Shown here one piece after another: positions 62,736 to 63,689 of a stretch of 64,000 nucleotides of DNA. Each line of letters begins with the position of its first letter. The first letter of the stretch is position 1. The position numbers and the translations under genes were made by a program. The notes under the pieces were generated by a model that did no database searches, was not told the origin of the DNA, and worked only from the letters and a program-made list of their open reading frames with translations. The stretch comes from a virus (lineage: Duplodnaviria; Caudoviricetes). The stretch spans positions 9,563 through 73,562 of IMG/VR virus record IMGVR_UViG_3300037418_002577; one strand, given 5' to 3'.

Positions 62736-63071
62736 ATGACCACGAAATTTGAGCAGTGGGCGATCGTCGAGGTGATGGGGCATGCCAGGTTCGCCGGCTG
62801 GGTGACCGAGCAGACGATCGGGGGCGCCGCCCTGATTCGCGTCGACGTGCCCGAGTTGGACGGTCGGCCAGCCTTTTGCAAGATGTTCGGGGCCTCGGCC
62901 ATCTATTCGATTACTCCGGTTGATGAGGCGACGGCCCGTCTGGCGGCAGGGCAATTCGGAGAACAGCCGATTCCCGTGTACATCCCGCGGGCCTTGCCAG
63001 CGCCTCGGAGCCGCGACGAGGACGATGAGGACCCGCATTACGACGGCCACGACGGTGAGCCGCCGCTTTGA
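62736..63071 (+). CDS. conserved phage hypothetical protein
   Basis: 'WAIVEVMGH..FAGWVTEQ.IGG..LIRVDVP' motif; GAGG RBS. Confidence 0.8.
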   Translation: MTTKFEQWAIVEVMGHARFAGWVTEQTIGGAALIRVDVPELDGRPAFCKMFGASAIYSITPVDEATARLAAGQFGEQPIPVYIPRALPAPRSRDEDDEDPHYDGHDGEPPL

Positions 63072-63589
63072 CCCGCGTTTGAAATTCGAGGCGTCCGACT
63101 GGATGACTTGCGTGTTCAAGACGGTCGTGAAAATGTCCACGAACACGACCCTGCGACTTGGGTTAAAGCGGGTCAGTGGAAGTGACCTAAAAAGAAACCG
63201 CGCGACACCTGCGAAACGCAAAGTGGTGCGACAGCTCGGAGAGACGAGCAAGGGCGGACATCCTGCTGTCATTCCGATGCCGTTTACGGTGCCCATCGGT
63301 TGAACACGCCCGACCCCACAGCAGGGAGTATGACTGCAGCTCTAGAGTGCAGTCGCGGCGACACCTGCCTGCAAAGCAAGTGGTGTGACAGCCGGGAGAG
63401 ACCGGCAATTGCATTCGGGGCGGGCACGGTGACCCGCGACGAAGCTGGTAAGTCAGTGGTGGAAAGGCGCTCAATGAGAGACTTGGCCGTTTCGACGAGT
63501 AGCCCACCCGAGGTCACTGTCTCAGTGGACAGGATTAGCCACCTGATTCCATACGGACCTCACACCGGGTTCGACTCCCGGCGGATGCT
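63069..63589 (+). ncRNA. candidate large structured ncRNA with a tRNA-like 3' end
   Basis: More than 12 complementary stems, a duplicated covarying module, and an acceptor stem plus canonical T arm; no credible ORF. Confidence 0.7.
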
Positions 63590-63654
63590 TTTCTAAGCAA
63601 CTCCCTTGTTGGGAGAAAACCTCCGGGCATTTAAATCCCGCCCGGAGCCCTTCT

Positions 63655-63689
63655 GCCCGGTCGCATAGTGACATCTGCGGCCGGGCTTT
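63655..63689 (+). terminator. terminator-like hairpin after the ncRNA candidate
   Basis: GCCCGGTCGCA/TGCGGCCGGGC 11-bp stem plus TTT. Confidence 0.45.

Follow-up and report, generated by a model that had tools for sequence, protein, structure and literature searches.

Does a long non-coding gap in a phage genome give rise to one large, ornate RNA, or is it built from several smaller elements? This question is raised by a 64,000-nucleotide (nt) stretch of the IMG/VR virus record IMGVR_UViG_3300037418_002577 (positions 9,563 to 73,562; Duplodnaviria, Caudoviricetes), hereafter the window, which belongs to a phage or prophage and encodes a large terminase (20081), a portal protein (22426) and a serine integrase (53914), as well as CsrA (57870), a RecE-like nuclease (58453) and RecT (59585). 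The gap (63072-63743, about 670 bases) extends from the stop of the open reading frame (ORF) 62718-63071 to an ATG at 63744 with no credible gene between, and can be regarded as the non-coding tail of an early recombination operon (csrA, recE-like, recT and small genes). An earlier note on this DNA had read the gap as a giant non-coding RNA of about 520-620 nt, either a divergent relative of the GOLLD and ROOL RNAs or a new class; the extent of the gap, its csrA/recET context and all nine of the nine stems listed in that note, each at its exact coordinates, were confirmed. The present analysis identifies within the gap two copies of a short two-hairpin motif that recurs in phages of very diverse bacteria, and the gap as a whole is probably, though by no means certainly, a string of separate small RNA modules in a modular, processed arrangement rather than one ornate RNA.

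The two-hairpin motif and its conservation

The gap holds a direct repeat of a module of about 55 nt (63199-63254 and 63355-63411), which is clearly beyond chance and had been missed in the earlier note. The motif consensus is GCGACACC-UGC[variable]AGU-GGUGYGACA-GCNNG-GAGAGA-CNNGC-A, and in both copies of the window, which lie on the plus strand, both helices are formed together with the invariant UGC..AGU, GACA and G-GAGAGA-C. Copy 1 (63199-63254) scored 63.0 bits with the covariance model R1 (E 8.5e-16); its helix P1 pairs ACACC (63205-09) with GGTGC (63225-29) and carries an inner hairpin, TGCG-AAA-CGCA (63210-20), followed by the linker GACA (63230-33) and by hairpin 2, in which GCTCG (63234-38) pairs with CGAGC (63245-49) across the loop GAGAGA (63239-44). 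Copy 2 (63355-63411) scored 66.0 bits (E 1.3e-16), with P1 formed by ACACC (63361-65) and GGTGT (63382-86), the linker GACA at 63387-90, and hairpin 2 formed by GCCGG (63391-95) and CCGGC (63402-06) around the same GAGAGA loop (63396-401). The third-best R1 score in the 64-kb window was 8.4 bits. Between the two copies, hairpin 2 differs by two fully compensatory changes (GCTCG/CGAGC versus GCCGG/CCGGC), which had likewise escaped the earlier note.

A 19-base search pattern taken from the 3' half of the motif, GTGGTGNGACAGCN{3,7}GAGAGAC, matched exactly in 90 IMG/VR contigs and 47 bacterial genome contigs, and the 5' half of the motif, which lies outside the pattern, is conserved in these matches as well. 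With R1, 81 copies were found in 63 loci, including tandem arrays of four to six. Across the 81 copies, 96% of the cells are paired, and changes on both sides of a pair occur in 74 cells compared with 15.8 in shuffles (0/500), while slid controls for the motif helices all collapse. No further covarying column pair was found in the 81 copies beyond those of the two helices, and an extra pseudoknot or long-range pair within the motif was rejected on this ground. The G-GAGAGA-C and GAC segments are invariant even in low-scoring copies that had not been selected by the pattern. The motif is a selected RNA structure on the plus strand, modular and mobile, with covariation throughout the family.

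For the comparison of the whole region, 62700-64000 was used as a blastn query against 144 related or motif-bearing loci, and only 63200-63252 and 63355-63418 matched any of them; in the region of copy 1, matches to dozens of phage loci cover the motif segment only. The 5' domain of the gap, the spacer with its candidate pseudoknot, the inside of the tRNA-like element and the terminal hairpins, all described below, had no match in these 144 loci. As only the motif copies match elsewhere, the gap appears to be a mosaic in which the motif is the sole shared, mobile part.

ORFs inside the gap belong to no Pfam or PHROG family, and the conserved protein that, according to the earlier note, might explain the region is not seen, since the 98-amino-acid ORF 63300-63596 has only itself as a homologue among 5.8 billion clusters. 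Rfam 15 was searched by cmscan with the whole window at gathering thresholds and with 62900-63800 at E<=10. At gathering thresholds the only matches in the window were Twister-P5 (9366-9433, minus strand) and tRNA (56390-56461), and the relaxed search of 62900-63800 gave only noise (best 16.6 bits against a threshold of 63.6), without any match to GOLLD, ROOL, group I/II introns, RNase P, tmRNA, 6S or YrlA. Membership in GOLLD (RF01998) or ROOL (RF03087) was accordingly rejected, as neither covariance model matched even at E<=10. ARAGORN returned nothing at default settings, and with thresholds relaxed to 70-80% it gave mutually inconsistent tmRNA and intron-tRNA calls with unidentified tags, which were not used. 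Of the idea of a non-coding RNA, the non-coding nature, the selected structure and the lack of a known Rfam family therefore stand, and the single giant RNA is not supported, as only two modules of about 55 nt are conserved.

The motif is absent from Rfam 15 and thus uncatalogued there. Full-text literature held nothing relevant for the motif letters, the candidate tables of PMC10690425 having been left unread; that paper is a virus-wide catalogue of 10,006 candidate structured RNAs, among which the motif may be included.

Carriers and genomic position of the motif

Hosts and genome contigs with the motif belong to the Cyanobacteria, Planctomycetes, Alpha-, Beta- and Gammaproteobacteria, Acidobacteria, Nitrospira, Chloroflexi and Gemmatimonadota, and also include Salinibacter. 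In 17 complete phage genomes there is one motif locus each, with two loci in two cases, and the number of copies ranges from one to six. The motif core of the cultured carriers is UGACA-GCCGG-GA(G/A)AGA-CCGGC-A and lies in unannotated gaps of 380-770 nt. Among these carriers, Cronobacter phage CS01 has the motif upstream of its terminase genes, Pseudomonas phage Medea1 has an apparently unannotated tRNA(CAU) about 300 nt downstream, and further carriers are Acinetobacter phage Alexa, Salinibacter phages (e.g., M31CR41) and several cyanophages. The two copies of Alexa stand, without any ORF, between a promoter-like site (10/12 matches) and a bidirectional terminator, a free-standing non-coding unit much like that of the window.

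Several observations on these loci may be recorded in their own right. The ORF-free unit of Alexa (2352-2923 of locus L171; about 34772-35343 of vB_AbaP_Alexa, MT375042.1) lies directly 3' of the integrase gene and has GAAAGA loops. The apparently unannotated tRNA(CAU) of Medea1 (about 2783-2862 of L172; about 40036-40115 of MW862109.1) has an encoded CCA and stands 3' of an intrinsic terminator. Arrays of four to six copies occur at L011 420-898 (minus strand), L018 6520-7037 (minus strand) and L045 2279-2680 (plus strand), where the P1 loops contain differing inserted hairpins, several of which share the sub-motif GGACYGGGUUACUYRGUC. Upstream of the motif in planctomycete and other loci, there is a second conserved hairpin, GCAGU-AGACCGUGGGGAG-ACUGC (L111 1905-1950; L114 515-470, minus strand; L121 about 4700-4740), whose stem covaries (GCCGU/ACGGC in L114) and which does not occur in this window.

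The motif lies on the strand of its flanking genes, and this also holds for the plus-strand copies of the window. An upstream stop on the same strand is found within 100 nt in 50 of 105 loci. Downstream, 41 of 67 loci have an ORF of at least 50 amino acids that starts no more than 14 nt after hairpin 2, the spacers being typically ACAUUUUU-like; the motif commonly ends about 8-12 nt ahead of a start codon lacking its own Shine-Dalgarno (SD) sequence. A separate SD-like tetramer is present in only one of the 41 close-start loci compared with 40% of background ORFs, and an SD is again present in 14 of the 26 loci with longer gaps. The genes that follow are diverse and encode a large terminase, a portal protein, a major head protein, a protease, methyltransferases, an exonuclease, a 2-oxoglutarate (2OG) oxygenase and members of several small unknown families. 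Calls of terminator-like structures are most frequent at the motif or immediately after it (28 versus about 7 per bin), and part of this peak is hairpin 2 itself together with the U-rich spacer. Relative to start codons, and also to the 5' ends of tRNAs, the motif is placed with nucleotide precision.

A motif about 35 nt upstream of a csrA-like gene (MLVLSRSPNQSVVIDGGIKVTV...) was seen at L111 1986-2330, in a prophage of a Planctomycetaceae metagenome-assembled chromosome (OY970228.1), and this is the sole direct junction between motif and csrA that was observed.

A tRNA look-alike behind copy 2

An element read from the sequence at 63411-63590 (plus strand), starting 4 nt after hairpin 2 of copy 2, resembles a tRNA without an anticodon arm. 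Its acceptor stem pairs GCATTCG (63411-17) with CGGATGC (63583-89) in seven pairs, one of them G-U; a D-like arm, GCGGG-CACGGTGA-CCCGC (63420-37), has a loop with GG; and the T arm, CCGGG-TTCGACT-CCCGG (63566-63582), is a consensus one that the earlier note had also passed over. In place of the anticodon and variable arms there are about 128 nt of hairpins, including GAGGTC/GACCTC (63510-61), and the element ends in a discriminator T (63590) with no CCA encoded. Both the acceptor and the T arm are kept in the minimum free energy (MFE) and centroid folds. The acceptor stem, the D arm with GG and the T arm with its TTCRANY loop are those of a tRNA, whereas neither an anticodon arm with its 7-nt loop nor a model score above threshold is present; because it falls below the threshold of every tRNA program, the element is called a look-alike and not a tRNA.

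The link to tRNAs is not confined to the window. In seven independent loci, ARAGORN placed tRNA(CAU) genes immediately next to the motif, and several of these genes have the hallmarks of initiator tRNAs (C1 mismatch and GGG/CCC anticodon stem). A consensus T arm on the same strand occurs no farther than 400 nt away in 13 of 118 unique loci, compared with 0.025 per kb overall. Moreover, the 5' end of a tRNA or tRNA-like element lies 4-7 nt after hairpin 2 in six loci. This spacing is 4 nt for the look-alike of the window, for a 106-nt tRNA in a Planctomycetaceae genome (L101), which has a CUCAUAA loop on an extended arm and an Rfam tRNA score of 45.6 bits, and for the tRNA-like elements of L033 (Rfam tRNA 33.1 bits) and L034; it is 6 nt for a real tRNA-Met (L007) and 7 nt for a tRNA-like element with an expanded middle and an encoded CCA (L045). 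In the window, it is copy 2, ending 4 nt before the look-alike, that has this usual context, and copy 1 is followed by the spacer.

Other parts of the gap and of the window

The whole gap folds better than its dinucleotide shuffles (z -3.45 for the plus strand and z -4.03 for the minus strand; 20 shuffles each), and its pieces are unremarkable alone (63055-63200, z -2.1; 63250-63360, z -0.4; 63400-63594, z -0.5). The 5' hairpin domain (63063-63175, plus strand) spans the stop TGA of the upstream gene (63069-71) and contains the inverted repeats I2 and I5; its outer stem, CCGCTTTGACCC(GC)/(GC)GGGTTAAAGCGG, encloses hairpins at 63092-63110 and 63123-63150 and is kept in the MFE and centroid folds. 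As no similar sequence was found among the 144 loci, this domain is without comparative support.

The spacer between the motif copies (63252-63357, plus strand) is unconserved, and its stems are present in the sequence. It includes a candidate H-type pseudoknot, in which GGGCG (63252-56)/CGCCC (63307-11) crosses CCTGCTGT (63262-69)/ACAGCAGG (63318-25), an inner hairpin CCGATG/CATCGG (63274-99) and a further hairpin GACTGCA/TGCAGTC (63332-54). By our own arithmetic, chance alone should yield roughly one perfect 8-bp complement at a distance of up to about 100 nt in a 600-nt stretch, so that the pair CCTGCTGT/ACAGCAGG has no significance of its own. The spacer has no homologue in any of the 144 loci and its nested fold has no thermodynamic excess, so that the pseudoknot proposed in the earlier note did not gain support. 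In other phages, the spacers between paired motif copies are 61-171 nt long and unrelated to one another and to that of the window, and some of them hold degenerate extra copies with a covarying P1 variant, ACGCC/GGCGU.

The non-coding stretch is closed by three GC-rich hairpins (63601-63690, plus strand; inverted repeat I1), namely CTCCC/GGGAG (63601-15), CTCCGGGC/GCCCGGAG (63621-47) and CCCGGTCGCA/TGCGGCCGGG (63656-85), followed by CTTTGAAACAAATTTGTTGTT; the two long stems are both present in the MFE and centroid folds. A simple terminator scan made no call on these hairpins because of an interrupted T run, and a terminator role is thus only presumed. The structures of all parts of the gap other than the motif are predictions without homologues. 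The gene that follows (63744-64000, plus strand) starts with an ATG preceded by AAAGGAAAG and extends past the end of the window, without a match to any family. In relatives of the upstream gene from IMG/VR and metagenomes (at most 59% identical), the motif and a comparable gap are both lacking, IMG/VR yielded no close relative of the RecT of this phage, and the whole gap gave no blastn match to GenBank phages; the exact locus is carried by nine contigs.

Elsewhere in the window, a type-P5 twister ribozyme (9366-9433, minus strand; 50.9 bits with Rfam, gathering score 37.6) directly adjoins the 3' end of the minus-strand ORF 9434-10948, and hence a self-cleaving RNA is also present in this phage. 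Just 3' of the serine integrase gene, an aberrant tRNA(CAU)-like gene (56390-56461, plus strand) reaches 35 bits with the Rfam tRNA model, on which ARAGORN is silent; it has the anticodon loop CCCAUAA (CAU) and a D stem of five pairs, GAGAC/GTCTC. A second exact occurrence of the T-loop-like word GGTTCGATTCC at 15621-15631 (plus strand), within the region of ORF 14460-15731, may be due to chance or be another tRNA-derived piece.

Proposed explanation and alternatives

In the modular reading, the gap would be transcribed together with the upstream genes of the early operon. Host RNase P would then recognize the tRNA look-alike and cut at its 5' end, 4 nt behind hairpin 2 of copy 2, and this cleavage would free a motif-bearing RNA, with its 3' end protected by hairpin 2, as well as a stable tRNA-like RNA; the GC-rich hairpins at 63601-63690 might end the unit. 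The tRNA-shaped RNA after copy 2 would be unable to decode. The loop and junction nucleotides of the motif (UGC..AGU, UGACA and G-GAGAGA-C) are near-invariant across phyla, and the motif probably serves to dock some conserved component of the host's RNA processing or translation; a portable docking or processing element is our best guess.

Several findings weigh against this reading. The look-alike is below threshold for both ARAGORN and the Rfam tRNA model (no Rfam tRNA match even at E<=10), shuffles fold about as stably (z -0.5), and homologues are lacking; by our own estimate, chance alone would supply a 7-bp acceptor partner within 200 nt in about one in five cases, and only its exact position argues otherwise. 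Neither copy of the window stands before a start codon, and the setting most often seen in the family is thus absent here. No enrichment of sigma-70-like sites was seen upstream of the motif, a test made weak by the diversity of hosts, and a promoter-proximal leader was rejected with the same reservation. Phage CsrA, for all that csrA is encoded upstream of the gap, is not linked to the motif and was ruled out as its general partner, since only one of 40 motif-bearing phage contigs carries the gene. In addition, the two copies and their spacer could still form one functional unit in this phage, and the lack of homologues of the spacer is no proof of a lack of function.

The single large RNA of a new class (about 520-620 nt), with the motif copies, the pseudoknot and the tRNA-like end as domains of one particle, would account for the stability of the whole gap relative to shuffles, for the strong closing hairpins and for the absence of a credible ORF, and paired motif copies 100-200 nt apart do recur in several phages; GOLLD and ROOL are also borne by phages, near tRNAs. 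We nevertheless give it little credence, because neither of these models matches, the two motif copies are the only conserved parts, the spacers of other phages share neither sequence nor length, the sub-regions have no thermodynamic excess, and the motif also occurs in arrays, singly or right before ORFs. The opposite view is that the gap is non-functional outside the motif copies and consists of chance stems in GC-rich DNA with a decayed tRNA gene or the remnant of a tRNA-derived attachment site. The near-zero z-scores of sub-regions, the missing homologues and the silence of the tRNA programs agree with it, as does the presence of an integrase and an aberrant tRNA(CAU)-like gene (56390-56461) in this phage, but the acceptor, D-like and T arms all fit, the distance of 4 nt between the motif and the 5' end is typical of the family, the integrase, encoded 8 kb away, is a serine recombinase, and 670 nt of junk rarely survive in a dense phage genome; this view appears rather unlikely.

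For the motif itself, a role in translation initiation is unlikely. The GGAG in the loop of hairpin 2, or another way of recruiting the 30S subunit, would serve an SD-less gene 8-12 nt downstream, and the copies of the window would be spare or decayed duplicates. The scarcity of SD sequences at close starts, their return at longer distances and the initiator-type tRNA-Met genes that adjoin the motif are as this idea would have it, but 16-20 nt separate the GGAG from the AUG, more than a normal SD allows; conservation that reaches well past GGAG would be superfluous in a plain SD; and there is no ORF behind internal array copies, pre-tRNA copies, the Alexa unit or both copies of the window. An antitermination signal of the nut/put type, through which a factor would be loaded onto RNA polymerase, or the polymerase bound directly, to allow read-through of the following hairpins and terminators, is quite improbable. 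Such a signal would be in keeping with the two hairpins, with one or two loci per genome, often ahead of the packaging and head operon, and with the strong hairpins that follow here, the terminators in Medea1 and Alexa and the peak of terminator-like calls; much of that excess may, however, be hairpin 2 and the U-rich spacer, no boxA-like sequence and no enrichment downstream of promoter-like sites were found, and neither arrays of five or six copies nor a fixed spacing to tRNA 5' ends would be expected of nut/put. Only a small chance is given to a decoy or sponge, in which the motif copies and the look-alike would titrate a host RNA-binding protein or defence nuclease (CsrA, or a tRNA- or anticodon-directed toxin). 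Tandem arrays of a hairpin that resembles a protein site, the CsrA encoded 5 kb upstream, the motif right before csrA in one Planctomycetaceae genome and the co-occurrence with phage tRNAs and anticodon-less mimics speak for it, but CsrA is rare in motif-bearing phages, the invariant GAGAGAC and UGACA exceed a GGA site, the GGA straddles the stem instead of lying mid-loop, and no consistently associated defence gene was noticed, though without a systematic test. A self-cleaving ribozyme is among further ideas for the motif, and the translation, antitermination, decoy and ribozyme ideas are inseparable by sequence alone.

Under the modular reading, the locus does not add a new giant RNA but offers a well-delimited instance of a short motif that is almost letter-identical across at least eight bacterial phyla. 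Conservation so strong across hosts suggests a universal host partner or an intrinsic activity. Any functional model has to respect three positional rules: one locus per genome, an end 8-12 nt before SD-less starts, and an end 4-7 nt before the 5' ends of tRNAs or tRNA-like elements. The cultured carriers (Cronobacter CS01, Pseudomonas Medea1, Acinetobacter Alexa and Salinibacter M31CR41) make the question of the motif directly testable, and the anticodon-less look-alike enlarges the growing set of phage tRNA mimics.

Comparison with known systems

Like GOLLD and ROOL, the gap is phage-borne, ORF-free, several hundred nucleotides long and near tRNA or tRNA-like genes. Unlike them, it has no large conserved multi-domain core, and what is conserved are two modules of about 55 nt that occur elsewhere alone or arrayed. 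A CsrA/RsmA site or a CsrB-like sponge is likewise a poor fit, as the GGA straddles the junction of stem and loop, the invariant part is far wider, and phage csrA is so rarely present.

The nut sites of lambda (boxA and boxB) and the put sites of HK022 are, like the motif, short cis elements made of hairpins, of which a genome has one or two and which precede long operons and terminators, and the GARAGA loop of hairpin 2 resembles the loops of boxB, which are purine-rich. However, the motif has no boxA, forms tandem arrays and is near-identical across phyla, whereas nut and put are phage-specific, and its fixed position before tRNA 5' ends and start codons is not promoter-proximal.

tRNA-like processing signals are known from the mascRNA of MALAT1, from the tRNA punctuation of polycistronic transcripts and from the stable RNAs of the phage T4 tRNA cluster. 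The likeness lies in a tRNA-shaped element directly 3' of another RNA, whose 3' end RNase P would set, although here the cleavage is predicted, the setting is that of bacterial phages, and the upstream partner is a 50-nt motif rather than a long RNA; the mascRNA model itself gave a weak match (63539-63588, 16.5 bits) that is not significant. With a canonical tRNA (RF00005), the look-alike shares the 7-bp acceptor, the D-like arm with GG and the consensus T arm with its TTCGACT loop, but it differs in having about 128 nt of hairpins instead of an anticodon arm, a 5-bp D stem, GG at positions 8-9 and no CCA.

The elbow of tRNA is docked by T-box Stem I, the L1 stalk and RNase P. The double T-loop module that docks there has the six-nucleotide signature AGNNA...UGNNA (PMC3664808), and the AG bulge of the T-box reads AGCGA/AGAGAG (PMC11404447). 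The letters of the motif also give the signature AGNNA...UGNNA, as AGAGA in loop 2 and UGCN[N]A in loop 1; its loop 2, G-AGAGA-C, is like the AG bulge of T-box Stem I; its loop 1, U-G-C-N-(insert)-A plus 2 nt, fits a T-loop with the insertion site between positions 4 and 5; and it is physically linked to tRNAs. In contrast to the module, the order of the loops is reversed, loop 2 departs from the usual arrangement with its 6 nt, GAAAGA variants break AGNNA, and the signature carries little information. There is thus no more than a slim chance, judged from the letters of the motif, that it is a portable tRNA-elbow device, in which the two loops would form a T-loop platform mimicking the tRNA elbow or docking onto it. 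If so, phages could tether tRNAs, tRNA mimics or the ribosome or RNase P to chosen points of their transcripts, and this would be the fourth natural, and the first mobile, use of the T-loop docking module.

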